In this document: positions 6,397 to 48,293 of the stretch, piece after piece | Position numbering within the stretch: the stretch's first letter is position 1 | Layout of the letters: each line of letters opens with the position of its first letter | Assembly (NCBI GenBank): GCA_023227985.1 | Contig: JALOCB010000006.1 | Span: 2,631-66,630, forward strand | From: Candidatus Omnitrophota bacterium | GTDB lineage: Bacteria; Omnitrophota; Gorgyraeia; Gygaellales; Profunditerraquicolaceae | Direction of reading: 5' to 3' | DNA: 64,000 nt | Program-made: the position numbers and the translations under genes | Notes under the pieces: model-generated | What the model saw: the letters and a program-made list of their open reading frames with translations, nothing else | Told to the model about the DNA's origin: nothing | The model's database searches: none

Positions 6397-6411
6397 AGGG
6401 GACGGTTCCTC
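6397..6411. repeat. Left arm of a 15-bp perfect inverted repeat (aggggacggttcctc)
   Basis: It is the exact reverse complement of 6577..6591. The pair brackets an AT-rich segment of about 165 bp between the giant-gene stop and polA. Confidence 0.7.
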
Positions 6412-6576
6412 TGCTTCTAACTATCGTATTCACAGTAAGATAACCACACCCTCATTGCCATTAAACAGCTGGAAACTAAATAATATTAACAATATTTTTT
6501 ATTCCGTTGGGGACACCAAACAACAACTTGACAAACAGGTCGTCGTAAATCATTTGCCGACAATAAGTAGTAAACC

Positions 6577-6591
6577 GAGGAACCGTCCCCT
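6577..6591. repeat. Right arm of the 15-bp inverted repeat (gaggaaccgtcccct); overlaps the stop codon of the giant gene
   Basis: Perfect reverse complement of 6397..6411. The TAG stop of the 6590..14779 ORF lies inside the arm. Confidence 0.7.
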
Positions 6592-31482: not shown

Positions 31483-31497
31483 CAAGACCCGGTCTTG
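31483..31497. repeat. 15-bp palindrome CAAGACCCGGTCTTG, copy 1
   Basis: Perfect palindrome around a central C. Lies in the 27-bp gap between the hybrid HK stop and the REC start. Confidence 0.7.
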
Positions 31498-31498
31498 A

Positions 31499-34288
31499 TC
31501 ACAAAAGATAATTCAGCCACTTTTCCAACAGCTTTATATCAAAAGGCTTGCCGATCATCGGCAAGGCTTCCTTTTTAATATACTCTTTTATACGGTCGAT
31601 TTTTACCTCGTATCCGGAGATTATCAAAAGCGGGATATCCTTGGTCCTTACACTGCCTTTAAGCCTGCCGATCACCTCGTAACCGCTCATCCTGGGCATC
31701 TTAATATCGAGTATTATCAGGTCCGGCGGCTGGGCTTCTATCAGGGCCAAAGCCTCTTCGCCTCCGGCAGCCTCGGTGATATTGCTATAACCGAACTTCT
31801 CCAGTATCTTGCGCAATGTGCTCAAAACCTCGGGTTCATCATCCACCAGCATTATCCTGCTTCTTGATCTTTCCTCCTGCGTATTAACCACGGATCTATA
31901 CGCCTTATCCAGCAACTCCTCCACGGTTTTAGCCTCATCCGGAAAAACAACGTAGCTGCTGGAAAATTGCGCCTTTAACTCTTCATCTATCTTAAAAATA
32001 GTTTCTTTAACTGCCGCGCGCAGCCTTAACTTAAGCCCCTGGGCTTCCAGCCTGGGAATAAGGCTGGACACAAACAGTTCATTCTCTACCCTGCGGATCA
32101 CCAGATCAGAAACGCCTATCTGGCCTTTTAAAGATTCCTGGATCTCCCGGCAAATAGCCTCTGTTTTATCCGAACCTGCCCGGATTTTGATCTGCCCGTA
32201 ATTATCCCACCGCAAAACGAATAAACCGAAAACAAAATACGCTTTTTCTATCGCGTCTTTGCCCTGCTTTATGCTCTCCTCCAATATCTTTTCTATGCCG
32301 TACCTGGGGAGCGTAAAAATAAATTTGGTTCCGGCGCCGACCGCGCTTTCAACATAAATGGCCCCGCCATGCTTTTCAATGATCTCCTTGGATATAGCCA
32401 AACCCAGCCCTGTGCCGCCTTTCCTTTCTTTAACATCTCCCAACTGCTCGAAGCTCTGAAAAAGCCGGGGAATATCTTCCTGCTTAACCCCGGGCCCGGT
32501 ATCTTCCACTGTAACGCATACGGCGTTCCCTTTCTTTGTGGTAGCCAAAATGATGCTTCCTTTTTCAGTGAATTTAATGGCGTTATTCACCAGGTTGGTT
32601 ATGACCTGGATGATCTTGTCGCGGTCAAACCTGAATACAGGCAGGTTCTCGTCAAGTTTGATCACCAGGTCCAGCCCCTTGGCTTTTATCAGGGCGGTCA
32701 TTGTCCTCTCGATCTCCAGGGCCACTTCATTGATATCGTTGTCCTGGAAATTGAACTGGGCCTTGCCTGCATCCAGCTTCTGGAAATCAAGGACATCGTT
32801 TATCAGGCGGGCCAAACGGTCCACATTCCTCTTAGCCGTATCCAGAAAATCTTTTTGCTCAAGGTTAAGCTCTCCGGCCGATCCGTCCAGTACAATATTT
32901 ATGCCCTCCTTGATCGCGGTCAGCGGGGTCCTTAACTCGTGGGAAACGATAGAGGTGAATTTTGATTTTGTTTCCATTGCCTCTTTAAGCCTTGCCTCCG
33001 CTTTCTTGCGCCCGGTAATATCCCGGATGGATTCAATAGCGCCGATAAAATGCCCCATATCGTCAAAAAGAGGAGCGGCCACTACCCAGAGATATGCGCC
33101 TTTTCCCTGGTAAAAGCCGGGGATGAACGTTTCCGCAAACAGATTATTCCCTTTTTTCTCTATAAAATCGTATTTCTTGCTTAATTTCGAATTATGCTGG
33201 AAGACAAAATCGATCATTACCGGCCGCGCCTGCCCGTAAAAAGGCACGGCATAGGCGTAATCGCCTTTGCCGATCATATCCTTCTTGGATACCCCGGTCA
33301 TATCCTCTAAAGCCCGGTTCCAGGCAATCACCTTTTTTTCCTGGTCTATAACAAAGGTGGCGTCAGGCAGGAATTCGATTATATCCAGGAGCTTGCGGTT
33401 GCTCGACTGAAGCCCTTCTTCGGCCCTTTTACGGCTGGTTATCTCCTGGAGCAAAACGCGGTTAAGCCTGCCCAGTTCCGCGGTCTTCTGTTGTTCTATA
33501 GCCACTAATTTCTGCTCTTTTTCTATGGCCAATCTCAGATCATCGCTCATCTTGTTGAACAGCCCGATCAACCTGCCGATCTCATCCTCCTTCTTGGGAA
33601 TTATCTTATGGCTGAAATCACCGTGGGCTACCAGGTTCATCCCTTTTCCCAGGTCTTTGATCGGCCGGATTATTGCCTGCAGCAGAAAGAAAAAAGTCAG
33701 GATTATGATGACCATTAGCCCGAACAGGGAAAGATAGATATTGCGTTTCCAGGTAGCCTTTTCCTCTGCGAGCTTATCCTTCCAATCCAGGACTATTCTC
33801 AAGACCCCGAGAACTTTTTTATCCCGGCCATGGCAGCCAAAACAGTTTTTTTCATTAAAAATCGGTATGCTCTTGGCAAAGACGCTCTCTCCTGTTTTCT
33901 TGCGTATCTCCACTCCCTGGATCTCTTCGCCCCTTAAAAGCCTGTCCAGATACTTAACCTGGGGCTTTTCGCCGATCCGGCTCTTATCCGTGCTTCTTTT
34001 AATGACCCCCAGATAATCCGTCAAATGGATGTCATTGACCTCTTTTAAATTACGGTAATTGTCGAATTGCAGTTGGATTATATCCTGGTCGCCGCCCAGC
34101 ATAGGATGGCGCATCGCGGTCAGAATAACGTTCGAGAAGGTGCTTCCTTCGTTGACGCTGTGCGTCAGCATTATCCTGTTCTGGTTACTTATGTTCATCA
34201 CGGTCATTATGCCCAGTATAGAGAATAATATGAAAAAGAGCATTATTATGCTGCGGGCGCTCAAGGAGTTATTTATATTTTTTATCAC
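31499..34288 (-). CDS. Hybrid sensor histidine kinase: TM, periplasmic CxxCH domain, TM, HAMP, PAS, HisKA, HATPase_c, unknown module, C-terminal REC
   Basis: 929 aa. Two TM helices flank a periplasmic region of about 140 aa that contains NCFGCHG, a c-type heme-binding motif. HAMP is followed by a PAS-like region (FVIDQEKKVIAWNRALEDMTG). The H-box is SHELRTPL. G-boxes are DTGPGV and GGTGLGLAIS. The C-terminal receiver is IMLVDDEPE...IILDIKMPRMSG. Confidence 0.85.
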   Translation of the reverse strand: MIKNINNSLSARSIIMLFFILFSILGIMTVMNISNQNRIMLTHSVNEGSTFSNVILTAMRHPMLGGDQDIIQLQFDNYRNLKEVNDIHLTDYLGVIKRSTDKSRIGEKPQVKYLDRLLRGEEIQGVEIRKKTGESVFAKSIPIFNEKNCFGCHGRDKKVLGVLRIVLDWKDKLAEEKATWKRNIYLSLFGLMVIIILTFFFLLQAIIRPIKDLGKGMNLVAHGDFSHKIIPKKEDEIGRLIGLFNKMSDDLRLAIEKEQKLVAIEQQKTAELGRLNRVLLQEITSRKRAEEGLQSSNRKLLDIIEFLPDATFVIDQEKKVIAWNRALEDMTGVSKKDMIGKGDYAYAVPFYGQARPVMIDFVFQHNSKLSKKYDFIEKKGNNLFAETFIPGFYQGKGAYLWVVAAPLFDDMGHFIGAIESIRDITGRKKAEARLKEAMETKSKFTSIVSHELRTPLTAIKEGINIVLDGSAGELNLEQKDFLDTAKRNVDRLARLINDVLDFQKLDAGKAQFNFQDNDINEVALEIERTMTALIKAKGLDLVIKLDENLPVFRFDRDKIIQVITNLVNNAIKFTEKGSIILATTKKGNAVCVTVEDTGPGVKQEDIPRLFQSFEQLGDVKERKGGTGLGLAISKEIIEKHGGAIYVESAVGAGTKFIFTLPRYGIEKILEESIKQGKDAIEKAYFVFGLFVLRWDNYGQIKIRAGSDKTEAICREIQESLKGQIGVSDLVIRRVENELFVSSLIPRLEAQGLKLRLRAAVKETIFKIDEELKAQFSSSYVVFPDEAKTVEELLDKAYRSVVNTQEERSRSRIMLVDDEPEVLSTLRKILEKFGYSNITEAAGGEEALALIEAQPPDLIILDIKMPRMSGYEVIGRLKGSVRTKDIPLLIISGYEVKIDRIKEYIKKEALPMIGKPFDIKLLEKWLNYLL

Positions 34289-36390
34289 TGCTTCCTCCTT
34301 AAGAGCATTTTTACCCGCGCCAGCAGCTTATCGCTGTCAAAAGGTTTGGTCAGGTAATCGTCCGCCCCGGCGTCAAGGCCCTGCAGCTCGCTTTCCTTAT
34401 CCTCCCTGGCGGTCAAAAGGATGACCGGGATCACCGCGGTCTCCAGTTTCGACCGTAAAGCCTTAACCTCTTCAAACCCGTTCATTTTGGGCATAGTAAC
34501 GTCGCTAATGACCAGATCCGGCTTTTCCTTATTACAGAACGCCACTGCCTCCTGACCATCCCTGGCCTTGACCACCCGATAGCCCGCGTCGGTGAGCCTT
34601 TTTTCCAGGATCTTCAGTATATCTTCCTCATCGTCTACAATAAGTATCTTTATATCCTTGCCGGCCTGCGCCGACCTAAGGACAGCTTCTTCCTCCGAGG
34701 CGGCGCCGACTATGTTGAAGATCTCTTCCAGAGTAGTGATCCCCGCGGATACTTTCTCCAGGCCTGCTCTGGCCAAAGTCTTCAGGCCGCTCTTCTTTGC
34801 CTCCGACAGAATCTCGTCTTCCGCGAACCTCTGGGCGATCATCCCCCGTATCTTTTCGCTGATCCTGAATATCTCAAAAATCGCGGTCCTGCCCAGAAAA
34901 CCGGTGAATCCGCAATAGCTGCAGCCCGAACCATGATAGAACTCCTTTATACCAAGCTGGTCTATATGGCTTTTAAATAGGCTTAACAAGTGCCCATCCG
35001 GTTGATATTTCTCTTTGCAATGCGGGCAGATCATCTTGACCAGCCTCTGGGCCACGACAAGGATCAACGCAGAAGATATCAGATACGGCTCCAGACCTAT
35101 ATCCACCAAACGGGTTATTGAGGCAACCGCGTTATTCGTATGCAGCGTGGATAATACCAGGTGCCCGGTCAAAGAAGCCTGGAAAGCCATTTCTGCTGTC
35201 TCCTTGTCCCTTATCTCGCCTATCAGGATAACATTCGGGTCCTGCCGCAGAATGCTCTTTAAGGCGTTGGCAAAAGTAAGATCCTTGACCGGATTTACCT
35301 GCATCTGGTTCAAGCCATCGATCAGATATTCTATGGGGTCTTCTATAGTAATTATATTATTTTTCTCTGTTTTAACGACATTAAGAGTGGCATAAAGAGT
35401 GGAAGTCTTGCCCGACCCTGTGGGCCCGGTGACCAGGATCAACCCTTGAGCGGCAGTGATCGCCTGTTTATAGATATCCAGATCCGGGCCTTGAAAACCC
35501 ATACTTTCCAGCCCGGTTTTTGCCGCCTGAATATCCAACAACCTCATCTCGATCTTTTCCCCGTAAAAAGTAGGTATAGTCGAGACCCGCAGATCGACCT
35601 TCCTGCCGTTGACCGATATCTTAATCCTTCCATCCTGGGGCTTGCGGTTCTCCGCGGTATCCAACTGCGCCAGGACCTTCAAACGCGCGGCCAGCGAAGA
35701 ATGCAGGCTGACCGGAAGGTCCATAATATTGCGCAGGTCGCCGTCTATCCTGTACCTGACCTTGACCGTCTTCTCCTGAGACTCGATATGGATATCGCTG
35801 GCCCTTTGTTTTACCGCGTCGCTCAAAATAAGGTTGCAAATCTTTACTGCCGGGACATCTTCGGATCTTTGCGCCCGCTCATCCAAAAAGAATTCAGACG
35901 CGTCTTCGGTAACGATCTCGACCTTATCCGCTCCCATGACATTCTTCAGGATGTCATAAATATTATCCTCCGCCTGATAATATTTCTTAATGTGATTGTT
36001 TATCTCGCTCTTGGCGGCCAGTAGCGGCTTTACGCTCATTCCCGTGTTCAACCTTATATCATCCAGGGCCATAATATCCTGGGGATCGCTCATCGCCAAT
36101 ACCAGCGCGTCACCCTCCTTGCGCAAGGGCAATATCCCGTAACGCATAGCCAGTTCATACGGGACCAGCCTGACAGCAGAAGGGTCTATTGTTTCCTTGC
36201 TCAACTGCGTAACAGGCATATTGAATATCTTGGATGAAGCGCTGACCAGCTGCTCCTCCGCGATAAAACCCATCTCCACTAATAATTCCTGAAGCGGCTT
36301 CTTAGCGCCGATGCGCTTGATCCTGGCGTCGTTAAGCTGTTCCGCCGTTATGAGCCCTTCCCTGATAAGCTCGTCGATCAAAACAGTCAT
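34285..36390 (-). CDS. GspE/PilB-family secretion ATPase fused to a C-terminal receiver (REC) domain
   Basis: 701 aa. T2SE N-terminal domain. Walker A is GPTGSGKT. Asp and His boxes are ILIGEIRD and LVLSTLHTN. A tetracysteine motif is CPHC...GSGCSYC. The C-terminal receiver (aa ~583-701) is ILIVDDEED...LVISDVTMPKMNG...YLTKP. Confidence 0.85.
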   Translation of the reverse strand: MTVLIDELIREGLITAEQLNDARIKRIGAKKPLQELLVEMGFIAEEQLVSASSKIFNMPVTQLSKETIDPSAVRLVPYELAMRYGILPLRKEGDALVLAMSDPQDIMALDDIRLNTGMSVKPLLAAKSEINNHIKKYYQAEDNIYDILKNVMGADKVEIVTEDASEFFLDERAQRSEDVPAVKICNLILSDAVKQRASDIHIESQEKTVKVRYRIDGDLRNIMDLPVSLHSSLAARLKVLAQLDTAENRKPQDGRIKISVNGRKVDLRVSTIPTFYGEKIEMRLLDIQAAKTGLESMGFQGPDLDIYKQAITAAQGLILVTGPTGSGKTSTLYATLNVVKTEKNNIITIEDPIEYLIDGLNQMQVNPVKDLTFANALKSILRQDPNVILIGEIRDKETAEMAFQASLTGHLVLSTLHTNNAVASITRLVDIGLEPYLISSALILVVAQRLVKMICPHCKEKYQPDGHLLSLFKSHIDQLGIKEFYHGSGCSYCGFTGFLGRTAIFEIFRISEKIRGMIAQRFAEDEILSEAKKSGLKTLARAGLEKVSAGITTLEEIFNIVGAASEEEAVLRSAQAGKDIKILIVDDEEDILKILEKRLTDAGYRVVKARDGQEAVAFCNKEKPDLVISDVTMPKMNGFEEVKALRSKLETAVIPVILLTAREDKESELQGLDAGADDYLTKPFDSDKLLARVKMLLRRKQ

Positions 36391-36394
36391 ATTG

Positions 36395-36769
36395 TTAGGT
36401 CCTTGGTTTATCCAACAGCGCCTTAATGGCAGCCATCAGGGCTTGGGGGTCATAAGGTTTTTCGATATAGGCATCAGCCCCGTCGCTAAGGACCTTCTTC
36501 TTGTATTCCGGGTCCGTCACTCCGGTAAGCACAATGACCGGGATGTATCTGACCTGATTGGATAATCTAATGTTCTTTAAGACCGCCTGTCCACCGCCCG
36601 CGGGCAGCATCAGATCCAGGATGATCAAATCAGGCGGGGTTTTATGGATCATTGCTATACCCTGATAAGCGTCCTGAGCCGCCATTACCTCAAAGCCCTC
36701 CTGGGCCAACCTTTTATGCAATACCTTCACAACATCCAGGTCGTCCTCAATGATCATTATATTGCGCAT
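36395..36769 (-). CDS. Single-domain response regulator
   Basis: 124 aa. IMIIEDD...IILDLMLPAGGG. Confidence 0.85.
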   Translation of the reverse strand: MRNIMIIEDDLDVVKVLHKRLAQEGFEVMAAQDAYQGIAMIHKTPPDLIILDLMLPAGGGQAVLKNIRLSNQVRYIPVIVLTGVTDPEYKKKVLSDGADAYIEKPYDPQALMAAIKALLDKPRT

Positions 36770-36795
36770 CTCTATTTGATCCTTTTTTTAAAAGC

Positions 36796-36836
36796 AAACA
36801 AAAAGGGAACGGATCGTTTAAAAGCGTTCCGTTCCC
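36796..36836 (-). terminator. Rho-independent terminator downstream of glgP
   Basis: On the minus strand, the stem GGGAACGGA...TCCGTTCCC is followed by a T-rich tail (TTTTTGTTTGC). Confidence 0.6.
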
Positions 36837-36878
36837 TCAAAAATCCCGCGTTTCTCATAAATACCACCGTGGCTTGCG

Positions 36879-39362
36879 CTATTTTTCGCAGGGTATATTG
36901 ACCGGCACATTCCAGATATCCCTGGCGTATTCCTGTATCGTCCGGTCGCTGGAGAACCTGCCGCACTTGGCGACGTTGAAGATCGACTTCTCCAGCCACA
37001 GCCGTTTATTGCGGTAAAGCTCGCTGACCTTGTCCTGCGCCTGGCAATACGGATCGAAATCGGCGCAGAGGAAATAACGGTCGTAATAAAGCAGGCTTTC
37101 CACTATCGGGACGAACAACCCGTAATTGACGTGCGAAAAAAAGTTGCTCTGGATAAGACGGATGATCTCTTTAAGCACGGGCGAACGGTCGATATATTCC
37201 TGCGGATTGTACCCCCTGGCCTGCAGTTTGCCGACCTCTTCCACGTTAAGTCCGAAGGTGAATATATTATCCTCGCCCACTGCCTCGGCTATCTCGATAT
37301 TCGCCCCGTCCAGCGTGCCGATGGTCAACGCCCCATTCATCATAAATTTCATACAGCCGGTCCCCGACGCCTCTGTCCCGGCGGTGGATATCTGTTCGGA
37401 AAGATCGGATGCCGGGAATATTTTCTCAGCCAGGGATACCCGGTAATTCTCCAGAAAGACCACTTTTATCCGGTCATTGACGGTCTTGTCCTGATTGATC
37501 ACCTCGGCCACGCTGCTGATGAATTTAATGATCATCTTCGCCATATAATAACCGGGGGCTGCCTTGCCTCCCAGGATGAATGTCCTGGGCACGATATCCG
37601 CGTTAGGATCGTTCTTTATCTTAAGGTACTGCGAGATAATAAACAAGGCGAAAAGAAGCTGGCGTTTATATTCATGGATCCTTTTCACCTGGACATCGAA
37701 CATAGATTCGGTATTTACCGCTATTCCGGTGGTCTTGTGGATATAATCCGCCAGGAAATGCTTGTTCTCCAGCTTGACCTCGTCCCACTTGTTCCGAAAG
37801 GCCTGTTCCATCTTGAAAGGAAGGAGCTTCTCAAGTTGGCACAGGTCCACTGTCCATTTCTCGCCGATAACCTCCGAGATCAGCGAAGAAAGACTGGGAT
37901 TGGCCTTCTGCAGCCATCTCCTCTGGGTGACGCCGTTGGTCTTGTTATTGAATTTTTCCGGGGATATCTCGTAGAAATCCTTAAAAAGATGCTCTTTCAA
38001 AAGTGTGGAATGCAGGCTGGAGACGCCGTTGACCGAATGCGACCCGATCAACGACAAATAGGCCATGCGGATCTTCTTGGGATCGCCTTCCTCGATTATC
38101 GACATCCTGCGCAGCCGGTCGGTATCCCCGGGGAATTTTATCGCCACATCCCGAAGAAAACGCATATTTATCTCATAGATCAACTGCATGTGCCGGGGGA
38201 GCAGTTCCTCGAACATCGGCACGCGCCAACTCTCCAGCGCCTCAGGCATAACCGTATGATTGGTATAAGCGAAAGTCTTTACGGTGATATCCCAGGCGGT
38301 TTCCCATTCCATGTTCTCCTCATCGAGCAGTATGCGCATCAGCTCGACGATGGCCAGCGAAGGATGGGTGTCGTTCAACTGGATGCACACTTTATCCGGC
38401 AAATGAACGAGGTCTTTATTTTCCGTCTTGAACCTGCGGATTATATCCGCGATCGACGCGGCGGTGAAAAAATATTCCTGTTTTAAACGCAGCTTCCTGC
38501 CCTGGCTTACCGCGTCATTGGGGTAAAGGACCTTGGAGATGTTCTCCGAGAGCATTTTATTGTAAACCGCGTGCTCATAATCGCCGTCGTTGAAATATTT
38601 AAGGTCGAATTCCTCGGTGCTGCGCGCCGACCACAGCCTTAAGGTGTTGACGATATCGGTCTTATAACCCGGGACAGGGATATCATAAGGCATAGCCAGG
38701 ACGTCCTCGGTATCCGCCCATTTTGCCCTCAACCTTCCCTTGGAGTCGGTGAACATATAGGTATGGCCGTAAAAGCGGATCTTAACCATGTATTCGGGGC
38801 GGGCAAACTCCCAGGGATTACCCCTGTTCAACCACTCGTCGGGAAATTCCACCTGATGGCCGTTGATTATCCTCTGATTGAATATCCCGTATTCATATCT
38901 TATGCCGTAACCGTGCGCCGGTATGCCCAGCGTCGCCATAGAATCCAGGAAACAGGCGGCAAGCCTTCCCAGACCGCCGTTGCCCAGTCCGGCGTCGCTC
39001 TCGCAGTCGCGGATATCCTCGATATCAAATCCCAGGGCCTCCATGCATTCCTTAACCTGATCGATGATCCCGAGGTTCAGCATGTTATTGCCTAAAAGCC
39101 TGCCGATCAGGAATTCCATTGATAAATAATAAACCCGTTTCACGTTCTCGGTATGATAGCGCTGCTGGGTATTGATCCAGCGCTCGATCAGCCTGTCGCG
39201 TATGGCTATGGCCAGGGCGGTGAAATTGTCGTTCAGGGTGGCGTTGTATTTATCCTTGCCCAGGGAATACTCGCGCTTGGAAAAAAAAGAACGCTCGATC
39301 CCCGCCTTAGTCATGTCTTTATGGACGTTCACCCATTTCGGTTCGATCTTTTTCGCGGCCAT
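36879..39362 (-). CDS. glgP: Glycogen/alpha-glucan phosphorylase (GT35)
   Basis: 827 aa. The PLP-binding region EASGTGCMKFMMNGALTIGTLDGANIEI is present, with full-length GT35 resemblance. Confidence 0.93.
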   Translation of the reverse strand: MAAKKIEPKWVNVHKDMTKAGIERSFFSKREYSLGKDKYNATLNDNFTALAIAIRDRLIERWINTQQRYHTENVKRVYYLSMEFLIGRLLGNNMLNLGIIDQVKECMEALGFDIEDIRDCESDAGLGNGGLGRLAACFLDSMATLGIPAHGYGIRYEYGIFNQRIINGHQVEFPDEWLNRGNPWEFARPEYMVKIRFYGHTYMFTDSKGRLRAKWADTEDVLAMPYDIPVPGYKTDIVNTLRLWSARSTEEFDLKYFNDGDYEHAVYNKMLSENISKVLYPNDAVSQGRKLRLKQEYFFTAASIADIIRRFKTENKDLVHLPDKVCIQLNDTHPSLAIVELMRILLDEENMEWETAWDITVKTFAYTNHTVMPEALESWRVPMFEELLPRHMQLIYEINMRFLRDVAIKFPGDTDRLRRMSIIEEGDPKKIRMAYLSLIGSHSVNGVSSLHSTLLKEHLFKDFYEISPEKFNNKTNGVTQRRWLQKANPSLSSLISEVIGEKWTVDLCQLEKLLPFKMEQAFRNKWDEVKLENKHFLADYIHKTTGIAVNTESMFDVQVKRIHEYKRQLLFALFIISQYLKIKNDPNADIVPRTFILGGKAAPGYYMAKMIIKFISSVAEVINQDKTVNDRIKVVFLENYRVSLAEKIFPASDLSEQISTAGTEASGTGCMKFMMNGALTIGTLDGANIEIAEAVGEDNIFTFGLNVEEVGKLQARGYNPQEYIDRSPVLKEIIRLIQSNFFSHVNYGLFVPIVESLLYYDRYFLCADFDPYCQAQDKVSELYRNKRLWLEKSIFNVAKCGRFSSDRTIQEYARDIWNVPVNIPCEK

Positions 39363-39382
39363 ACTATCCTTTCATCAGATAT

Positions 39383-40375
39383 TTACAGGATCAACATCGC
39401 GTCGCCGTAACTGTAGAACCGGAATTTATCCTCGACGGCTTTCCGGTACGCCCTCTTGGCCAGCTCTTCTCCGGCGAACGCGCAAACCAGCATAAAGAGC
39501 GTGGTTTTGGGAAGATGAAAATTGGTCAATAACCGGTCGACCATCCGGAACTTATACCCCGGATAAATAAACAGGCTGGTATCGCCCTGCGCCATCCCCT
39601 GCCCGGCGTAAGTCTCCAGGGCGCGGCAGCTGGTAGTCCCCACAGCGCAGATACGCCCGTTATTCTTCCGGCACTTGTCCAAAAGGACAAGAGTCTCATC
39701 CGGAATGCTGAAATGCTCCGTGGACATCGGATGTTGCGTGATATCCTCGCATTTCACGGGTTTAAAAGTTGCGTGCCCGACGTGCAGGGTAACGTATCCC
39801 AGTTCAACCCCTCCCGCCTTGATCTTATCCAGAAGCCCTTCGGTGAAATGCAGCCCCGCCGTAGGCGAAGCGACCGATCCTTTTTTGCTGGCGTAAACAG
39901 TCTGATAATAAAGCTTATCCAGCTCTTCCGGCTCCCGTTTAATATACGGAGGCAGAGGTATAACACCTAAATTATATACCTGTTCTTCATCGCAATCAAG
40001 GAATGTCACTTCATTCCTGCCGCTTATCGAACAGAAGATATCCTTATTCTTGAATACTATCTTTTCCCCAAGCTTCAGCCTGCCGGGCTTGAGCAACGCC
40101 TCAAATGTAAGCCCGGATTTACGGCTTAAAAGGAACACCTCAACCTTGCCGCCGCTGAGCCTGTGGCCTTTCAAACGGCAGGTAAGGACTTTGGTATTGT
40201 TCAGCGCCAGCAGGTCGTTCTTAGCCAGAAAATCCGCTATCCTGGAGAATCTGAATTCCCGGATACTTTCGTCTGCACGGTCAACGACCATTAACCGGCA
40301 GCTTGCCCGGTCTTCCAAAGGATACTGGGCAATAAGCTCCTTCGGCAGTTCATAATCAAAATCCGCCAATTTCAT
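39383..40375 (-). CDS. queA: S-adenosylmethionine:tRNA ribosyltransferase-isomerase
   Basis: 330 aa. MKLADFDYELPKELIAQYP is the canonical QueA N-terminus. Confidence 0.9.
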   Translation of the reverse strand: MKLADFDYELPKELIAQYPLEDRASCRLMVVDRADESIREFRFSRIADFLAKNDLLALNNTKVLTCRLKGHRLSGGKVEVFLLSRKSGLTFEALLKPGRLKLGEKIVFKNKDIFCSISGRNEVTFLDCDEEQVYNLGVIPLPPYIKREPEELDKLYYQTVYASKKGSVASPTAGLHFTEGLLDKIKAGGVELGYVTLHVGHATFKPVKCEDITQHPMSTEHFSIPDETLVLLDKCRKNNGRICAVGTTSCRALETYAGQGMAQGDTSLFIYPGYKFRMVDRLLTNFHLPKTTLFMLVCAFAGEELAKRAYRKAVEDKFRFYSYGDAMLIL

Positions 40376-40437
40376 TTAAATAAGCGCCTTTGCTGTAATA
40401 ACATTATACCACAACACTTTGCTTCAATTTAACTAAA

Positions 40438-41610
40438 TTACCCCGGGCTCAAGCTGGTCAACGATACAATTTCGGAATCCGGATAATAAAACCCCAGTAT
40501 ATCGCGGTAAAGCCCGCCAAGCTTTGCCTGAAAATACGCCCCCCACTGGCACAAACCGACCCCATGGCCCCAGCCCAGGCCTGAGAATTCCAAACCGCCA
40601 AAGCCCGGCTTCACCGTAAAATTGGCGCTGCGGATAATATCCGGCCCGATAATATTGCGGAAATCCTTCGCTTGCATCTTGATCCCTGCGGCATCGGTAT
40701 CAACCTGCAGGTCAATAGCCCGGTTCGAACGGTCCCGCTGCAGGACGCGGATGGATTTCACCCGGTTTATTTTATATCCTGCCTTGACCAGGCTATCTCT
40801 GATGCCGGCCTTATTCAAACCCGCGCGCCAGCTAAAATGCGGGGAATCCCCGCAATAATAACAGGCTACGCCTTTTAATGGCGGGATATTTATATCCCAT
40901 AAAAGAGAAGCGTCCTCTGTGTGCCCGGCGCAGGTAGAATGATAAAATGCCGGAAATATCTTCCCTTTGTAAACCAGCACCTCGTTCTTGGTCTGGTCTA
41001 CCGCGTCATTTATGCGGTAGCGCTCAGCTTGCTTCCCGCCGTAGACCTGAGAATAGACATCGCTGGTCACATCAAAATCCTTGTTCTTATTCTGTTCGAT
41101 CTGATAAAGGGCGAATGTCCTGAAAACAATCGCCTGCGCCTTTAATGCCTCCGCCGGCCAGTAATGCGACACCTCCCTGACCGCTATGCCTTTGACATAA
41201 TCCTCCAAACCCAGATAATTAACGGCGCTGAGCCCTAAACTGCTCTTGCGGATTATCCGGACCCCCCCTCGGTATCTCCGGTTATTTATCAAGATCTCAG
41301 CGCTGCCCCCGGGTTTTATAAATACGGAATCCGTGTTGATATTTTCACCCGGCCAGACAAGCCCGGATTTTCCGGCGAACACCGCGGCATCAAGGTCCTG
41401 TCCGGCGAACAATCTTTTACCGCTGTTGACGTCAAAAACCTCATATCCGCCAACGGCCTTTATCTTCAACTCCGGGGCGCTGCTAACAATCCGCACCCGT
41501 ATCTCATTAGAAGATTGGCACCGCGCGCAGGATGGAGCGGCGAATTGCCAGGCCAGAATCGCGGCTGTAATAATTTGTGCTAATAATAGGCGTTTTACCG
41601 GCGGGGCCAT
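40438..41610 (-). CDS. SpoIID/LytB-domain protein (amidase enhancer family)
   Basis: Signal peptide. Motifs YHSTCAGHTE and GHGVGLCQWGA are typical of SpoIID/LytB. Confidence 0.8.
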   Translation of the reverse strand: MAPPVKRLLLAQIITAAILAWQFAAPSCARCQSSNEIRVRIVSSAPELKIKAVGGYEVFDVNSGKRLFAGQDLDAAVFAGKSGLVWPGENINTDSVFIKPGGSAEILINNRRYRGGVRIIRKSSLGLSAVNYLGLEDYVKGIAVREVSHYWPAEALKAQAIVFRTFALYQIEQNKNKDFDVTSDVYSQVYGGKQAERYRINDAVDQTKNEVLVYKGKIFPAFYHSTCAGHTEDASLLWDINIPPLKGVACYYCGDSPHFSWRAGLNKAGIRDSLVKAGYKINRVKSIRVLQRDRSNRAIDLQVDTDAAGIKMQAKDFRNIIGPDIIRSANFTVKPGFGGLEFSGLGWGHGVGLCQWGAYFQAKLGGLYRDILGFYYPDSEIVSLTSLSPG

Positions 41611-41855
41611 AACCAGAAGATTATTGAGACTATAACGCTGATCAATATTGAGGTGGAAAGCGGGAAATAAAGAGTAAAATTCTTTTTCTGGACCAGTATA
41701 TCTCCGGGAAGTTTGCCTAAAAACGGGATGCGCTGCATAAAAGCAAGCGACACCCCCAAGCCAACCAGGATGATCCCGAAAATTATTAAAACCTTGCCCA
41801 ATCCCTGCATCTCATTCCCCCGCTTAACGCTCCAAGACCCGGTCTTGCATCTCAT
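41595..41855 (-). CDS. Small membrane protein (DUF2905-like)
   Basis: Two TM helices. The likely true start is MQGLGKV at about 41810. Confidence 0.5.
   Translation of the reverse strand: MRCKTGSWSVKRGNEMQGLGKVLIIFGIILVGLGVSLAFMQRIPFLGKLPGDILVQKKNFTLYFPLSTSILISVIVSIIFWLWPRR
41833..41847. repeat. 15-bp palindrome CAAGACCCGGTCTTG, copy 2
   Basis: Identical to copy 1. Lies in the ruvB / small-membrane-protein intergenic gap. Confidence 0.7.
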
Positions 41856-41872
41856 TGACCAGCAGCGTGTTG

Positions 41873-41887
41873 CAAGACCGGGTCTTA
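41873..41887. repeat. Near-palindrome CAAGACCGGGTCTTA, copy 3 (degenerate)
   Basis: Preceded by GTTG, as is the copy at 48279. It lies 25 bp from copy 2. Confidence 0.55.
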
Positions 41888-42985
41888 AAACAGTTCCTCT
41901 TGTTTTTCTTTAGTATAAGTTATTCCGAGATGTTCGTAGGCGAGTTTGGTGGCCAGCCTTCCCCGGGCAGTGCGCTTCAAATACCCTGCCTTGAGCAGAT
42001 AAGGCTCGACCGTGTCGGCGATAGTATCCACTTCTTCGTTCAATGAGGCAGCCAGAGACTCTATGCCCACCGGGCCTCCGTCAAAAGAACTGATCACAAG
42101 CTTAAGCACCTTGCGGTCCATATCGTCAAGGCCGGATCTGTCTATTCTCAAATCATCCAGGCTTTTGGCGGCTATCGCCTGATCGATCTTGTCTTTATTC
42201 GCCACCTGGACGTAATCGCGCACCCGGCGTAAAAGCCGGTTAGCCACACGGGGAGTGCCGCGCGCCCTGCGGCTTATCTCCAGGGCGGCTTCCTGGTCGA
42301 TCCTGATATTCAACAGCTTGGCCGAACGGCTGACGATCTCAGCCAGGTCCACCACATCGTAGAAATCAAGGTGATGAAAGATCCCGAACCTGCTCCTTAA
42401 AGGGGAGGATAAAAGCCCTGACCGGGTCGTCGCTCCCACCAGGGTAAAAGGCTTGAGATGGAATTTTATGGTCTTGGCGTACGGGCCTTTATCGATGATG
42501 AAATCTATCTCTGAGTTCTCCATCGCCGGATAAAGGAATTCCTCCACCACCTTGGAAAGCCGGTGTATTTCGTCGATGAACAGGATATCCCCTTTTTCCA
42601 GATTGGTCAGGATGCCGATCAGGTCTCCCGCTCTTTCTATAGCCGGGCCGCTGGTGGCGGTGATCTTGGAATGCATCTCGTGGGCGATGATATGCGAAAG
42701 GCAGGTCTTTCCCAGGCCCGGAGGACCGGATAAAAGCACATGCTCAAGCGGCTCTTTCCTTTGTTTGGCCGCGGCCAGGCAGACCTTGAGGTTATCGACG
42801 ATCTCTTTCTGGCCGATGAACTCGCCCAGCTTTGTGGGGCGCAGAGATATAATTAAAACAGTATCCTCTTCCGTCTCCTGGTTCTCGCGCAAAAGGAACG
42901 CCGGGACAGCCTCAGGATCAGGCCCCAGATAATTGAACTTGGCGCTGTCCGGCCTAATTGCTCTGGCTTTCGGTTCTCTGGTCAT
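41885..42985 (-). CDS. ruvB: Holliday junction branch migration helicase RuvB
   Basis: AAA+ domain with Walker A GPPGLGKT, Walker B ILFIDEIHRL and the sensor region. A winged-helix domain lies at the C-terminus. Confidence 0.93.
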   Translation of the reverse strand: MTREPKARAIRPDSAKFNYLGPDPEAVPAFLLRENQETEEDTVLIISLRPTKLGEFIGQKEIVDNLKVCLAAAKQRKEPLEHVLLSGPPGLGKTCLSHIIAHEMHSKITATSGPAIERAGDLIGILTNLEKGDILFIDEIHRLSKVVEEFLYPAMENSEIDFIIDKGPYAKTIKFHLKPFTLVGATTRSGLLSSPLRSRFGIFHHLDFYDVVDLAEIVSRSAKLLNIRIDQEAALEISRRARGTPRVANRLLRRVRDYVQVANKDKIDQAIAAKSLDDLRIDRSGLDDMDRKVLKLVISSFDGGPVGIESLAASLNEEVDTIADTVEPYLLKAGYLKRTARGRLATKLAYEHLGITYTKEKQEELF

Positions 42986-43712
42986 AAGGTATGATATTGT
43001 TCTGGTTCCGGGCTATCTCTATTTCGCCGAAGGCCTCGCACTGCAGGGCGCGGATCTCCCTGAGCTTGACCAATTCCAGTATGGATAGGAATGTGACGAT
43101 TATCTCTATCTTTGTCTTGGCCTGGGTGAATAATTCCGAAAGCTTCACGGAGTTCTTCAATAACAGCAGATGAAGTATCTGATGGATCTTGTCTTCAATG
43201 CTGTATTCGTCCTTGATCACGTTGTAAAAAATATCTTTAGGAGTTTCTTCAAGAGCCTGGGAAAACGCGGTGATCAAATCAAAAATGCTTGCTTCGAAAT
43301 ACACCGGCGCGGTCTCCGGCAGGTCTTTCTCCTGAAGTTTCGGCCTTTTGAATATATCCTGCTGTTTTATCTCGCGCTGCCTTAATTCCTGGGCGATCTC
43401 TTTGAAACGCTCGTATTCCAACAGCTGTTTGACCAGCTCATCCCGAGGATCGACCGCATCATCCTGCGCCTCTTCGGATTCAACCGCCGGCAAAAGCATT
43501 TTGGACTTAATCTGCATAAGCGTGGCGGCCATAACCAGAAATTCGCCGGCGATGTTCAGGTCCAGGCACTTCATCAGCTCAAGGTAAGACAAATACTGCT
43601 CGGTGACCTTGGCGATCGGGATATCATAGATATTCAAATGGTCGCGCTTGACCAGGTACAAAAGAAGGTCAAGCGGGCCTTCAAAGAGCTCCAGTTTTAT
43701 TTTATAGTTCAT
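42954..43712 (-). CDS. scpA: Segregation and condensation protein A
   Basis: 252 aa. LELFEGPLDLLLYLVKRDHLNIYDIPIAKVTEQYL is the canonical ScpA N-terminus. Confidence 0.85.
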   Translation of the reverse strand: MNYKIKLELFEGPLDLLLYLVKRDHLNIYDIPIAKVTEQYLSYLELMKCLDLNIAGEFLVMAATLMQIKSKMLLPAVESEEAQDDAVDPRDELVKQLLEYERFKEIAQELRQREIKQQDIFKRPKLQEKDLPETAPVYFEASIFDLITAFSQALEETPKDIFYNVIKDEYSIEDKIHQILHLLLLKNSVKLSELFTQAKTKIEIIVTFLSILELVKLREIRALQCEAFGEIEIARNQNNIIPYDQRTESQSN

Positions 43713-44698
43713 ATGCCTAAAGCCGTCCTTACCTGGCGCATTGTTTCCTCGGCGGTCTTTGCCGCACGCCTGTTCCCGTCGGCCAGTATATCGGTTAATT
43801 TCGTTTTATCGCGCAGCAATTCCTGCCGTTTGGCGTAAAAAGGCGCCAGGTATTCCGTCAACTTTGACGCCAGGTTCTTTTTGCAATCCGTGCAGCCCTT
43901 TGACGCGTTAACGCACCAATCTTTCACCTCATCCATGGCCCCCGGAAAAAATGTGGAATAATACGAGAAGACATTGCAGATATCCGGATGGCCTTTATCC
44001 GAAAGCTTTATCCTTTTCGGATCGGTGATCATAGTCTGGACCTTTTTCTTTATGGTCTCCTGCGTATCCGAAAGGTTTATCGTATTGTTATAGCTTTTGC
44101 TCATCTTCCTTCCATCCAGACCCAACAGCCTGGGTGTTTGGGTAAGTATGGCGTCGGGATAAGGCAATACCTCTTTGTGATAAAGGCCGTTGAACCGGCG
44201 GCTGATCTCCCGGGTAAGCTCCAAATGCGGGAGCTGATCCTCTCCGACCGGGACTTTATCCGCTTTATATACCAGGATATCCGCGGCCTGGAGCACCGGA
44301 TACCCAAGGAAACCGTAAGTATGCAGGTCGCGGGTCTGGATCTGGCGCAGTTGCTCTTTATAGGTCGGGCATCTTTCCAGCCAGCCCAAAGGCGTAAAGC
44401 AGGAAAATATCATAAAAAGGTCCAGATGCTGGTGGACCTGGGATTGGACAAAAATGGTGGATTTTTCCGGGGAGATGCCGAAGCTCAGCCAATCGACGAG
44501 ATTATCCAGGGTATACTCGGATAAAACTTTCGGATCCTCATATTCGCCCATCAGCGCGTGCCAATCGGCAACCATAAAGAAACAATCGTATTCCTGCTGC
44601 AGCTTTATCCAGTTTTCCAGGGTGCCGACCAAATGGCCCAAATGAAGTTTGCCGGTGGGACGCATCCCGCTGAGGATTCTTTTTTTCTGATGCGACAT
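43709..44698 (-). CDS. trpS: Tryptophanyl-tRNA synthetase
   Basis: Class I aminoacyl-tRNA synthetase. The HIGH motif appears as GKLHLGHLVG. KMSKS is present (GRKMSKS). Confidence 0.93.
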   Translation of the reverse strand: MSHQKKRILSGMRPTGKLHLGHLVGTLENWIKLQQEYDCFFMVADWHALMGEYEDPKVLSEYTLDNLVDWLSFGISPEKSTIFVQSQVHQHLDLFMIFSCFTPLGWLERCPTYKEQLRQIQTRDLHTYGFLGYPVLQAADILVYKADKVPVGEDQLPHLELTREISRRFNGLYHKEVLPYPDAILTQTPRLLGLDGRKMSKSYNNTINLSDTQETIKKKVQTMITDPKRIKLSDKGHPDICNVFSYYSTFFPGAMDEVKDWCVNASKGCTDCKKNLASKLTEYLAPFYAKRQELLRDKTKLTDILADGNRRAAKTAEETMRQVRTALGI

Positions 44699-44707
44699 AT
44701 TTCGGTA

Positions 44708-46957
44708 TTATTCCAGTGTCCGGGCGATCTTCTGTATCTGATAGGCCTCGATCATATCGCCAACCATCACGTCGGGATAACCCTTGATCGCCAGCCCGCA
44801 CTCAAAACCCTCTTCGACTTCCTTGACATCGTCTTTGAAACGCTTTAAGGAAGCCAACTCCGCGTTATCCAGGACAACCGCGCCGTTGCGGTTAAGGGTT
44901 ATCGCCGCGTTACGCGGGATCTTGCCTTTTTGGACAAAACAACCGGCGATGGTCCCGGAAGTGGAAAGCTTGAATACCTTGCGCACCTCGACCTTGCCCA
45001 GGAATATCCTTTTCAATTTCGGGGCAAGCATCCCCTCGAGGGCGGCCTTTATATCATTAACCAACTCATATATGACATTGTAAACCCGGACATCCTGGCC
45101 TTCTTTGTCTATCAGGGACTTGGCCAGATCATCCGGGGTAACGTTAAAGCCCAGGATCAAAGCGCCGGAAGCCAGAGCCAGGATCACGTCCGACGAGTTG
45201 ATGCTGCCGGCTCCGTCATGTATTATATTAAGCTTTACCTCCGGAGAATTTATCTTGTTCAGGGCTTCTTTTATAGCCTCTACCGACCCCTGGGCGTCAG
45301 CCTTGATGATAATATTCAATTCTTTGATCTTGCCTTCTTTGATCTGGGAATACAGGTCTTCCAACCCCAGCCTTTTCACCGGGGTCATCTGCCTTTGTTT
45401 TTCCTTTTCCTGGCGTTTAAGCGCCAGTTCCTTGGCGGTTTTCTCGTCTTCGATCACAAAGAACTGTTCGCCGGCCTCGGGGATGCCGGTAATGCCTAAA
45501 ACCTCCACCGGCGTGGACGGGCCAGCCTGGGTCAAAGGCCGGCCGTGATCGTCGAACATCGCCCGGATCTTTCCGTAAAAACCGCCTACGATTATATTCT
45601 CATTAAGATGGACTGTGCCTGCCTGGATCAAAAGCGTGGCTACCGGTCCTTTGCTTTTTACCATCTTCGCTTCCAGAACAACGCCTTTACCCTGCCGGTG
45701 GGGGTTCGCCTTTAACTCCAGCATCTCCGCCTCCAGGATAATCATTTCCAGCAGCGTATCTATCCCCTGGCCGGTCTTGGCCGATACCGGGACGGTTATG
45801 GTCTTGCCGCCCCAGTCTTCCGCCATAAGCCCTACTGCCGATAATTGTTTTTTCACCTTATCCGGATCAGCCTGCGGCTTATCGATCTTGTTCAAAGCCA
45901 CAATTATCGAAACTCCGGCTGCCTTGGCATGATCGATGGCCTCCTGGGTCTGGGGCATTATCCCGTCGTCCGCGGCGACCACCAGGACCACGATATCAGT
46001 GACCTTTGCTCCCCTGGCGCGCATAGCGGTGAACGCCTCATGCCCCGGGGTATCCAGAAAAGTTATATTGCCTTTCGGCAGGCTGACCTTGTACGCCCCG
46101 ATATGCTGGGTAATCCCTCCGTGCTCGGATTCAGCCACCTTACTGTTGCGGATGGCGTCGAGTATAGACGTCTTTCCGTGGTCAACATGCCCCATTATGG
46201 TTACTATAGCGCAGCGGTGCTTAAGGGTTTCGGGCAGGTCAGGCTTGTTATGGCCGATCAACGCGGTCTCTTCCTGGCCCAACGCCTCTTTGATCTTAAA
46301 TCCGTATTTTTCGCAGACTTTCTCCACTACTTCTTTAGCCAGGTTCTGATTGATCCCGGCCATTACCCGCATACCCATAAGCGTCTTTATCAATACCGAA
46401 GGCTTTTCCTGAAGTTTAACGCTGAGGTCCTTTACCGATATAGGCAGTTCCATTTCCAGGTCTTTAAGAACAGGCTGTATTGCCTGAGGCTGCGCGGGGA
46501 TCTCCGGCTTAGCTTCGACGACCGGCGCCGCCGGCTTACTTACTTCTTCTTTATGATGCGCTGCCGGATGTGCGGCGGTATGCTCTGCCTTATGATGCGC
46601 ATGAACAGGCGCGGACTCGGATCTCGGCTGAGGCTTGGCCTCTGCCGGATGATGCGCTTTTGGATGCTCCGCATGATGGGCGACATGCGCTTTTAATTCA
46701 TGCGTATCATGCGTTTTTTTCTCCGGCTCAACAGTGGCAGCCTTAGCCGCGTGCTTAATAGGTTCTTTTTTCTTGCTAACCGCGGGTTTGTGCAACGGCT
46801 TAAGCGTTTCTTTGGCCTTTTCCGGAGCATGCCCTGCGGCCTTTACCGCAGGTCTGGCCTTGGCCGGCTTGTGCTCTACTTTTGCCGCAGGCTTGGCTTT
46901 AATCTCTTTGGCCTTTTTGACCGTTGTCTTGGCTTTTTCTTTTTTTAATTTATCCAT
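44708..46957 (-). CDS. infB: Translation initiation factor IF-2
   Basis: GTPase domain with G1 [17 protein letters not shown] and NKID. C-terminal beta-barrel domains. The N-terminal region of about 190 aa is K/A/P-rich with a His-rich segment ([13 protein letters not shown]...HAHHKAEH). Confidence 0.95.
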
Positions 46958-46989
46958 TTATCCGCTTTCTAAAATAAACAGCTGGTCTA

Positions 46990-48219
46990 TTATTTAAGAA
47001 GCTTCTTGGCTTCCTTGATCATCTTCTCGGCTTTTTTCTCGCCTATTCCTTTTACCTGGGTAAGGTCTTTTACTTCAGCCTTGGCGATATCTGCCAGGGA
47101 CTTGAAACCCGCCTCTTTAAGCAACTCCCGGGTCTTTTCTCCCACGCCGGATAATTCCTCTAAAGAAGGGGCTTTATCCGTTCCCTTTTCTTCCTTGTCT
47201 GACTCAGCCTTGACTGCAACGGCCTCCGCTGCGGCCGCTTCTTTATTCCTGGCGTCTTGCGCCGCTGCCGCTGCCTCCAAAGAAGCTTTAGTCCGCACAT
47301 CCAGCTCCCAACCCACCAGTTTCGAGGCGAGCCGGACATTCTGCCCGTGTTTTCCGATAGCCAGAGAAAGCTGATCGTCAGCCACGGTTATTTCGACGCG
47401 CTTGGTCTCTTTATCCAGCTTCATCTCGCCCACTTCAGCGGGCAAAAGAGCGGCCTTGATATATTCCCGGATGTCTTCGCTGTAACGGACAATATCGATC
47501 TTCTCGCCGGAAAGCTCGTTGACTATATTCTTGACCCGGCCTCCGCGCATACCCACGCAGGCGCCGACCGAATCCACCTTATCGTCCTTGGACCAGACAG
47601 CTATCTTGGTCCTTTCCCCTGCCTGGCGCGAGATAGCTTTGATCTCGACGATCCCCTCGTATATCTCCGGGACCTCCAGCTCAAAAAGCTTTTTCACGAA
47701 ATTCGGGTGTTTGCGCGATAATATTATCTGCGGGCCGCGGTTCTCTTTCTTGACCTCCGCGACAAAAGCGCGGATACGCTGTCCCTGCTTGAATTCCTCT
47801 TTCGGCGACTGCTCGCTCTTTAAGAGAAGGCCTTCGGCCTTGCCTAAAAGGTCGATCACGATATTGCCTTTCTCAAAACGGTAAACCGTGCCGCTGATGA
47901 TCTCCCCGACCTTGCCCTGGAATTCCCCATAGACAACGTCCTTCTCCGCTTCGCGGATCTTCTGAATGATCACCTGGCGCGCCGCGCTCGCGGCAATCCT
48001 TCCGAAATCCTTAAGGGTGATCTCTTCGGTATTCTTGAACACGCGGATCTCCCCGGAAACAGGTTCCAGGACCACCTTAAGCTCTTCATTAAGCTTCACG
48101 TCTACATTACGGCGCACCGCACTCAAAAGGGCCGTTTCCACAGCCACGATCAAAACTTCTTTTTTTATCCCTTTTTCACGTTCAATCTGCTCTATTATAG
48201 CGATCAATTCTTTACTCAT
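46990..48219 (-). CDS. nusA: Transcription termination/antitermination factor NusA
   Basis: N-terminal domain, S1 domain and two KH domains. An acidic C-terminal region carries helix-hairpin-helix motifs. Confidence 0.93.
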   Translation of the reverse strand: MSKELIAIIEQIEREKGIKKEVLIVAVETALLSAVRRNVDVKLNEELKVVLEPVSGEIRVFKNTEEITLKDFGRIAASAARQVIIQKIREAEKDVVYGEFQGKVGEIISGTVYRFEKGNIVIDLLGKAEGLLLKSEQSPKEEFKQGQRIRAFVAEVKKENRGPQIILSRKHPNFVKKLFELEVPEIYEGIVEIKAISRQAGERTKIAVWSKDDKVDSVGACVGMRGGRVKNIVNELSGEKIDIVRYSEDIREYIKAALLPAEVGEMKLDKETKRVEITVADDQLSLAIGKHGQNVRLASKLVGWELDVRTKASLEAAAAAQDARNKEAAAAEAVAVKAESDKEEKGTDKAPSLEELSGVGEKTRELLKEAGFKSLADIAKAEVKDLTQVKGIGEKKAEKMIKEAKKLLK

Positions 48220-48278
48220 TTAATTTCCTCATCTCTTGCAAATCCGGGCCTTAGAACTCCTTGTCCGTAAACAAGTTG

Positions 48279-48293
48279 CAAGACCCGGTCTCG
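48279..48293. repeat. Palindrome-like CAAGACCCGGTCTCG, copy 4 (one mismatch)
   Basis: Lies in the rimP-nusA intergenic gap. It shares the GTTGCAAGACC 5' context with copy 3. Confidence 0.55.

Follow-up and report, generated by a model that had tools for sequence, protein, structure and literature searches.

The window analysed here is a stretch of 64,000 nt from the genome of a Candidatus Omnitrophota bacterium (G000; 1.58 Mb in 63 contigs, 95.5% complete), and the element in question is a 15-bp palindrome, CAAGACCCGGTCTTG, that recurs in short gaps between its genes. We conclude, with a probability that we put at about 0.88, that this palindrome is the arm of a repetitive extragenic palindrome (REP) doublet of the REPIN type (REP doublet forming hairpins) and that the doublet is spread by a REP-associated tyrosine transposase (RAYT). 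The palindromes form dispersed inverted doublets, they are strictly extragenic, they are absent from the orthologous gap of related genomes, and they flank a RAYT-type Y1 transposase gene. An initial annotation of the window had named a REP-like element as the third of its candidate functions, and this is the candidate that the evidence favours. In the proposed mechanism, the doublet carries no gene and would be spread by the product of a single-copy RAYT gene (Y1/HUH) at C16:13213-13806, which is itself flanked by arms (C numbers denote contigs of the source genome). Under this reading, Candidatus Omnitrophota, a phylum whose members are uncultured and have small genomes, would be added to the hosts of the REP/REPIN-RAYT partnership; a full-text literature search returned no paper that mentions both Omnitrophota and extragenic palindromes. 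With the motif explained in this way, the sites should be annotated neither as operators nor as a new RNA family.

Architecture of the doublet

The palindrome folds into a 6-bp stem with a 3-nt loop and is a perfect dyad of 15 bp, or of 17 bp if the flanking T/A is counted. A motif search of the window finds four copies. Two are exact (31483-31497 and 41833-41847), one at 41873-41887 is in reverse-complement form with a single mismatch, and another with one mismatch occupies 48279-48293. These arms belong to the following elements, none of which has a strand assigned:

31483..31497, no strand: solo REP arm, a bare 15-bp palindrome in the 27-bp gap between the hybrid histidine kinase and receiver genes
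41833..41887, no strand: full 55-bp REPIN-type doublet with left arm 41833-41847, spacer 41848-41872 and right arm 41873-41887
48239..48293, no strand: decaying 55-bp doublet in the rimP-nusA gap with arm 48279-48293 (1 mismatch), spacer 48254-48278 and arm 48239-48253

The four copies reported by the initial annotation are all present, and the extended context GTTGCAAGACC that it described as common to two of them is real. Its statement that the recurrence exceeds chance also stands. If up to two mismatches are allowed, dinucleotide-preserving shuffles of the window contain 0.09 matches on average, and the observed count is reached in none of 100 shuffles. The neighbouring genes are those that it named, with Pfam assigning a hybrid histidine kinase and receiver, RuvB and DUF2905, and RimP and NusA, all on the minus strand, and the gaps, given as 27-76 bp, measure 27, ~74 and 76 bp. 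The copies are not four separate elements, however. Those at 41833 and 41873 together make up a single 55-bp inverted doublet (15 + 25 + 15), of which each is one arm, and the copy at 48279 also has a second arm. The replicating unit is the 55-bp doublet, which the annotation had missed, and not the 15-mer. The statement that no copy lies within a coding region is correct for gene interiors but not at 41873-41887, where the arm overlaps the ruvB stop codon 41885-41887.

All three elements lie close to the ends of the neighbouring reading frames. The solo arm begins 1 nt past the kinase stop codon (31499-31501) and ends 11 nt ahead of the receiver ATG (31469-31471), with no spacer-like sequence on either side. 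In the ruvB doublet, the final three bases of the right arm are the stop codon itself, and the doublet stops 22 nt short of the likely ATG (41808-41810) of the DUF2905 membrane-protein gene. The decaying doublet is found 2 nt past the rimP stop and 19 nt ahead of the nusA ATG; its second arm at 48239-48253 (CAAATCCGGGCCTTA) carries 4 mismatches.

The whole genome contains 27 exact and 18 one-mismatch arms, with an expectation of ~0.003 exact copies from genome size. The 13-bp core AAGACCCGGTCTT is the commonest 13-mer of the genome with 42 copies. We count ~32 loci in total, of which 17 are full doublets; about a dozen single arms also occur, and most of these still have spacer-like sequence on one side. 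The doublet has the form CAAGACCCGGTCTTG + 25-bp spacer + CAAGACCGGGTCTTG, and the spacer is exactly 25 bp long in 17 of 17 cases. Its consensus is yAACnnnTTnnnnnnCAAnnnGTTr, which places a conserved GTT(R) tag at the inner side of each arm, with the arms head to head. Within this tag, G is conserved in 11-13, the first T in 14-16 and the second T in all of the 17 copies. Pairwise identity amounts to 91% for the arms versus 55% for the spacers, and no two copies are near-identical.

On single-stranded DNA, the doublet is predicted to fold into one long hairpin. The consensus-arm copy C7:55687 reaches -22.5 kcal/mol (z = -9.3) in this fold, and the ruvB doublet 41833-41887 reaches -18.7 kcal/mol (z = -5.5).

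An irregular arrangement is found at C52:2868-2938 near a contig end, where three irregularly spaced arms lie within 70 bp, including the sole GTAG-prefixed variant (GTAGACCCGGTCTTG). The opposite end of this 3.2-kb contig carries a truncated Y1 transposase gene (C52:1-266).

A transposase gene flanked by the arms

The source genome holds five PF01797 (Y1_Tnp) genes according to a Pfam search. The gene at C16:13213-13806, which encodes 197 aa, lies between two arms: an exact one 31 nt ahead of the ATG and a one-mismatch arm that follows the stop codon after 13 nt. Spacer-like sequence adjoins each of them on its inner side, so that the doublet resembles this unit minus the gene. The closest homologue among 40 related genomes is found in G019 (57% identity) and is surrounded by several repeat copies. 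A third metagenome-assembled genome (MAG), G043, has an orthologue of 54% identity that is flanked by tandem clusters of doublets, and three more orthologues on JGI and Logan metagenome contigs (56-63% identity) each have the same 15-mer on both sides. In all arm-flanked orthologues the arms lie ~15-85 nt from the coding sequence. The arm is thus constant while the transposase diverges to 54-63% identity, and each genome has its own fixed doublet spacing.

The gene also keeps its place. The order BNR-repeat protein > RAYT > thioredoxin > CbiA/DRTGG is the same in G000, in G019 and in three metagenome lineages, and each genome has one gene of this transposase clade, with no tnpB partner. The constant slot and the single copy therefore fit vertical inheritance as described for RAYTs, which are single-copy, chromosomal and vertically inherited (PMC5581495). 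The system may serve as a clean comparative case in which a single-copy transposase and a repeat population persist together by vertical descent.

The C16 protein is a member of the Y1 family by sequence and by predicted fold. It matches Pfam Y1_Tnp (PF01797) with 53-54 bits versus a cut-off of 23, and its sole and best NCBIfam match is REP_Tyr_transpos (NF047646) with 54.7 bits. H60 and H62 of the HUH motif and Y120 of the motif YIHxNP are invariant across 35 homologues. JGI labels several homologues 'REP element-mobilizing transposase RayT'. A search of the Protein Data Bank (PDB) with the single sequence gives no match, and a profile search reaches ISDra2 at 6e-4 and 4ER8 at E = 0.53. With matches as weak as these, the relationship had to be settled by structural comparison. 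The AlphaFold model of the protein (pLDDT 86, pTM 0.81) has 4ER8_A as its top Foldseek match in the PDB, with E = 1.7e-8, TM 0.61/0.72 and 169 aligned columns at a sequence identity of 15%. The transposases of IS608, ISDra2 and IS200 rank below it (IS608 and ISDra2 at TM ~0.44-0.46, query-normalised).

4ER8 is the structure of E. coli TnpA-REP with a REP hairpin; on single-stranded DNA, this enzyme reads the hairpin together with a 5' GTAG tetranucleotide (Messing et al. 2012, PMC3479197). By analogy to this case, the GTT(R)-plus-hairpin unit is the structural analogue of the E. coli GTAG and hairpin. From the same analogy, extended to IS200/IS605, we infer that the C16 protein moves the elements by a single-strand mechanism. 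It would recognise the hairpin plus tag on single-stranded DNA, with GTTG-CAAGACCGGGTCTTG as the putative substrate unit, and would cut and rejoin the strand without producing target-site duplications.

Two further observations concern these genes. The flanks of the G043 gene (L098 1100-1450 and 2060-2210) consist of tandem clusters resembling bacterial interspersed mosaic elements (BIMEs), with a unit of ~129 bp that alternates two arm variants, AAGACCSGGTCTT and AAGACCWGGTCTT, differing at the loop centre; in these clusters only the central base of the palindrome varies freely. In the source genome, the Y1 paralogue at C15:621-1853 has 410 aa and a long C-terminal extension with a hydrophobic segment (VFVTAGAVLVVIAAAGGIYLL), an architecture that is unusual for the family.

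Insertion and placement between genes

The copies are insertions. The rimP-nusA gap of 76 nt in the source genome consists of 21 nt plus the 55-nt element. In 12 related genomes this gap measures ~19-28 nt in most cases (10), while G019 and G043 have ~47 nt. All 12 lack the element, even these two, in which the same repeat family occurs, and the conservation in orthologous gaps that the initial annotation had proposed to look for is thus not found here. At the second locus, the alignment with relatives holds through the conserved ruvB C-terminus and stop codon and reaches the element's first base; because relatives differ in the gene that follows ruvB, no clean empty site is available there. 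None of the 17 doublets is flanked by direct repeats of at least 3 bp, and the base just outside the arm (position -1) is T at 28 of 34 ends. The lack of target-site duplications fits single-strand Y1 transposition and not a miniature inverted-repeat transposable element (MITE) of the DDE type.

In the rimP-nusA gap of G013, a relative without the 15-mer, a different short repeat (GATTACGCAGATTAAAAATCAGATTACGCCGATAAAAATCACGTAATC) is found at L139 ~1950-2030. It would seem that sites of this kind are also used by other repeat families elsewhere in the Omnitrophota.

Placement relative to genes was determined with simple longest-ORF calls (open reading frames; ~92% coding), counting as interior every position more than 60 nt inside a gene. 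A genome-wide count of intergenic versus coding copies, proposed as a check by the initial annotation, gives a clear result: none of the 45 arms with up to one mismatch is gene-interior versus 36 expected (P ~1e-32). Matches with three mismatches are gene-interior in 46 of 57 cases, as chance predicts. The loci lie between co-directional genes in 29 of 32 cases and between divergent genes in the remaining 3. Read in the direction of transcription, the element starts 1-8 nt past the upstream stop codon or supplies the stop itself, and it ends 7-24 nt ahead of the next start codon, which leaves room for the ribosome-binding site alone.

At ~8 loci the upstream reading frame enters the element for 3-48 nt and terminates there, so that the element encodes the last residues and the stop. 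Sites of this kind are:

C4:41344-41398, reading frame ending inside the element
C48:6334-6388, reading frame ending inside the element
C16:38168-38222, reading frame ending inside the element
C18:3038-3092, reading frame ending inside the element
C21:3974-4028, reading frame ending inside the element
C30:658-672, reading frame ending inside the element
C16:18540-18554, reading frame ending inside the element

The stops derive from TGA where the arm end ...TTG meets A, from the TAA that opens many spacers, and from stops deeper in the spacer. Arm and spacer together offer a stop in each reading frame. In this way the repeats alter gene ends, since a number of upstream reading frames have their stop within the element.

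This placement is not taken as evidence of function, because purifying selection alone would leave survivors in exactly these positions in a genome with a median co-directional gap of 15 nt. Copies would persist only where they are tolerated, and in a genome as densely packed as this one the tolerated space is the short stretch from a stop codon to the ribosome-binding site of the following gene. The orientation of the spacer relative to gene direction (11:5) is not significant and therefore gives no support for a strand-specific function.

One alternative is that the hairpins, once delivered, were co-opted as intercistronic mRNA devices at stop codons, just ahead of the next ribosome-binding site. 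We regard this as unlikely. If it were true, a terminating ribosome would have to melt a hairpin of ~-20 to -38 kcal/mol, which could throttle or uncouple translation of the neighbouring cistrons or protect the upstream message. The RAYT-REPIN pair would then owe its retention in one slot, throughout several genera of a phylum with reduced genomes, to the installation of such mRNA devices, and the strict conservation of the arm would reflect a role at host level as well as recognition by the transposase. In E. coli, REPs stabilise the mRNA upstream of them, and those located no more than ~15 nt from a stop codon reportedly reduce translation of the upstream gene. Most copies in the source genome lie within ~15 nt of a stop codon.

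A stronger form of this idea holds that the hairpins are selected RNA elements of polycistronic mRNA, such as processing or stability sites, termination brakes or insulators, and that this role rather than mobility explains their spread. The location of 29 of the 32 copies between co-directional genes, where they would be transcribed, is in line with it, as is the tight spacing to the preceding stop and the following start. The RNA hairpin is very stable (-37.9 kcal/mol for the ruvB doublet with flanks), the arms are conserved well above the spacers, and genera with RimP proteins of only ~50% identity share the same arm. Against this, the positions are lineage-specific, and the rimP-nusA gap is free of the element in all relatives examined, owners of the family included. 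The arms flank the transposase gene in G000, G019, G043 and three metagenome contigs, spacer orientation shows no significant bias, the short gaps of a genome that is ~92% coding yield the same placement through purifying selection alone, and conservation of the arm is equally expected from transposase recognition. We therefore consider a selected RNA element very unlikely as the explanation of the family. The RNase or attenuation hairpin among the initial candidates may at most be a side effect of the inserted DNA.

Two narrower RNA assignments were rejected. The scan gives 26 terminator-like sites versus 20.2 +/- 4.8 in shuffles, only one window arm weakly fits this pattern, and the sense strand continues after the arms with an A/G-rich ribosome-binding sequence where a terminator would have a T-run; the arms are thus ruled out as intrinsic terminators. 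The combined scan for terminators and promoters gives no promoter pattern tied to the arms and no enrichment. An Rfam scan of 30-50 kb returns only a sub-threshold mir-999 match over the doublet (28.5 bits vs 58), which we take as a generic hairpin artefact and not as a known family.

Distribution, remaining alternatives and related systems

A wider pattern search with one genome per species finds doublets of the same arms in ~10 MAGs, most of them labelled Candidatus Omnitrophota and a few with other, probably loose, labels. The length of the matched pattern is fixed per genome, at 38, 45, 48, 49-50 or 50-51 nt, and is 53 nt for the same pattern in the source genome. One of these MAGs likewise has its copies placed between a stop codon and a ribosome-binding site. 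The repeats probably cause contig breaks in Omnitrophota MAGs.

The co-occurrence of repeat and transposase bears on a further alternative, in which the doublet is a MITE-like repeat moved by another enzyme, or a dead relic, and its adjacency to the Y1 gene is incidental, for example as a preferred landing site. Diverged copies without identical pairs and with spacers of only 55% identity would agree with it, as would the fact that the source genome has four more Y1 genes and at least one further repeat family, and the genomes G042 and G044, in which doublets occur and no close orthologue was detected. It is at odds with the arm standing on both sides of the gene in seven independent assemblies despite 37-46% protein divergence. 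Among the 41 genomes of the family and order, the 15-mer is abundant in G000 (27 copies) and G019 (33) alone; it is absent from 37 of the 40 relatives and has 3 copies in one. A close orthologue of the transposase is likewise found in G000 and G019 only, with other best matches at no more than 42% identity, so that repeat richness and this transposase clade occur only together. The lack of target-site duplications stands against mobilisation by a DDE-type enzyme, and the second Y1 gene with repeats in this genome (see below) has its own, different terminal repeats, which points to a pairing of one enzyme with one repeat. An incidental association is in our view highly improbable.

Several results weigh against the REPIN-RAYT assignment itself. 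The canonical 5' GTAG at the foot of the hairpin is not the tag of this family and is seen in one odd copy only (C52:2924). The C16 protein does not pass the NF047646 equivalog cut-off (54.7 < 80 bits), and its sequence similarity to 4ER8 in the profile search is marginal. The centre-base orientation of the arms that flank the gene differs between the source genome and the metagenome orthologues. In the doublet-bearing G042 and G044 the best matches to the transposase are 36-40% identical and not arm-flanked; the missing orthologue could reflect incomplete bins. Finally, the repeat population may be old and currently inactive, as judged from the diverged spacers and the lack of near-identical copies.

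The operator reading, in which a dimeric transcription factor would bind the palindrome as duplex DNA and the sites would define a regulon, also goes back to the initial candidates and draws on the perfect dyad that recurs at many loci, but it is extremely unlikely: the sites lie within operons between stop codon and ribosome-binding site and not at promoters, with only 3 of 32 in divergent gaps, they are not kept in orthologous gaps, they form fixed 55-bp doublets and tandem clusters that are typical of REPs and BIMEs and not of operators, and in place of a helix-turn-helix regulator carrying the site, as had been suggested, the only gene with the site on both flanks is the transposase.

The REPIN-RAYT system assigned here shares its main features with that of Pseudomonas fluorescens SBW25 and relatives (Bertels & Rainey 2011, PMC3116915; PMC3337134; PMC5581495). 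In both cases an inverted pair of REPs with fixed spacing forms one long hairpin, dozens of copies are extragenic, singlets are decayed doublets, and a single-copy Y1 transposase flanked by the same REPs occupies a constant chromosomal slot, in agreement with vertical inheritance. Both also have several transposase-repeat pairs side by side within a single genome. In contrast to the proteobacterial hosts of that system, the host here belongs to Candidatus Omnitrophota. The arm is much shorter, the tag is GTT(R) instead of GTAG, copy number is modest with ~32 loci, and the protein falls below the NCBIfam RAYT equivalog cut-off.

The similarity to E. coli REPs, BIMEs and TnpA-REP extends from the best structural match, the HUH motif and the catalytic Tyr to a hairpin with a conserved 5' tetranucleotide, to repeats in transcribed intergenic gaps and to the BIME-like tandem clusters of two alternating REP variants at the G043 gene. 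E. coli REPs are, however, imperfect palindromes of ~35 nt with a bulge that is essential for binding, whereas the palindrome here is perfect, GTAG is replaced by GTT(R), and sequence identity to 4ER8 is low, as given above.

The GTAG/CGTC superfamilies described by Di Nocera et al. (2013, PMC3733652) comprise short stem-loops with reported stems of 5-13 bp and loops of 2-20 nt, a range that includes the present arm. Head-to-head dimers also predominate there, and transposase genes are associated with the repeats ('REPtrons'). For GTAG repeats, an occurrence in the PVC superphylum has been reported (PMC3733652). With its GTT(R) tag, the present family lies outside both superfamilies as defined. 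The IS200/IS605 elements IS608 and ISDra2 share the Y1 HUH fold, sub-terminal hairpins with a tetranucleotide guide, the lack of target-site duplication and a preferred fixed base 5' of the insertion, which corresponds to the T at -1 here. Unlike in these elements, the gene is single-copy and syntenic across genera rather than multi-copy, it has no tnpB, and it is the gene-less doublet and not the gene that is multiplied. Four features thus set this system apart from the textbook cases: its host phylum, a hairpin that is perfect and very short, the GTT(R) tag and a transposase below the equivalog threshold. Together, a perfect hairpin of 15 nt and GTT(R) in place of GTAG make this an unusually minimal system.

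A second, unrelated repeat family with a Y1 gene is present in the source genome and has one copy in the window:

6397..6591 (C3:9027-9221), no strand assigned: repeat of ~195 bp with inverted ends AGGGGACGGTTCCTC...GAGGAACCGTCCCCT, not of the 15-mer family

This copy lies just upstream of an 8.2-kb gene that starts near 6590. The family has 29 termini in the genome, forming ~13 pairs at distances of 130-195 bp. Its full-length copy at C2:9596-10353 carries the second Y1 transposase gene (C2:9639-10226, 195 aa). This is a second transposase-repeat pairing, of the long-inverted-repeat type, and RAYT genes flanked by long terminal inverted repeats have been described as well (PMC3733652). A third dispersed family shares the words AAAACATTTATTT, TACAACGTCTACA and CGTTGTAGCTAAC, with 9-19 copies per word. 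Its sites include, among others:

C4:25284-25376, third-family site
C7:36317-36436, third-family site
C10:3517-3560, third-family site

From C54:15940-16290 onward, a regular array with a period of 66 bp is found, whose repeat contains CGTGGATTGAAAC and which has the appearance of a CRISPR array.

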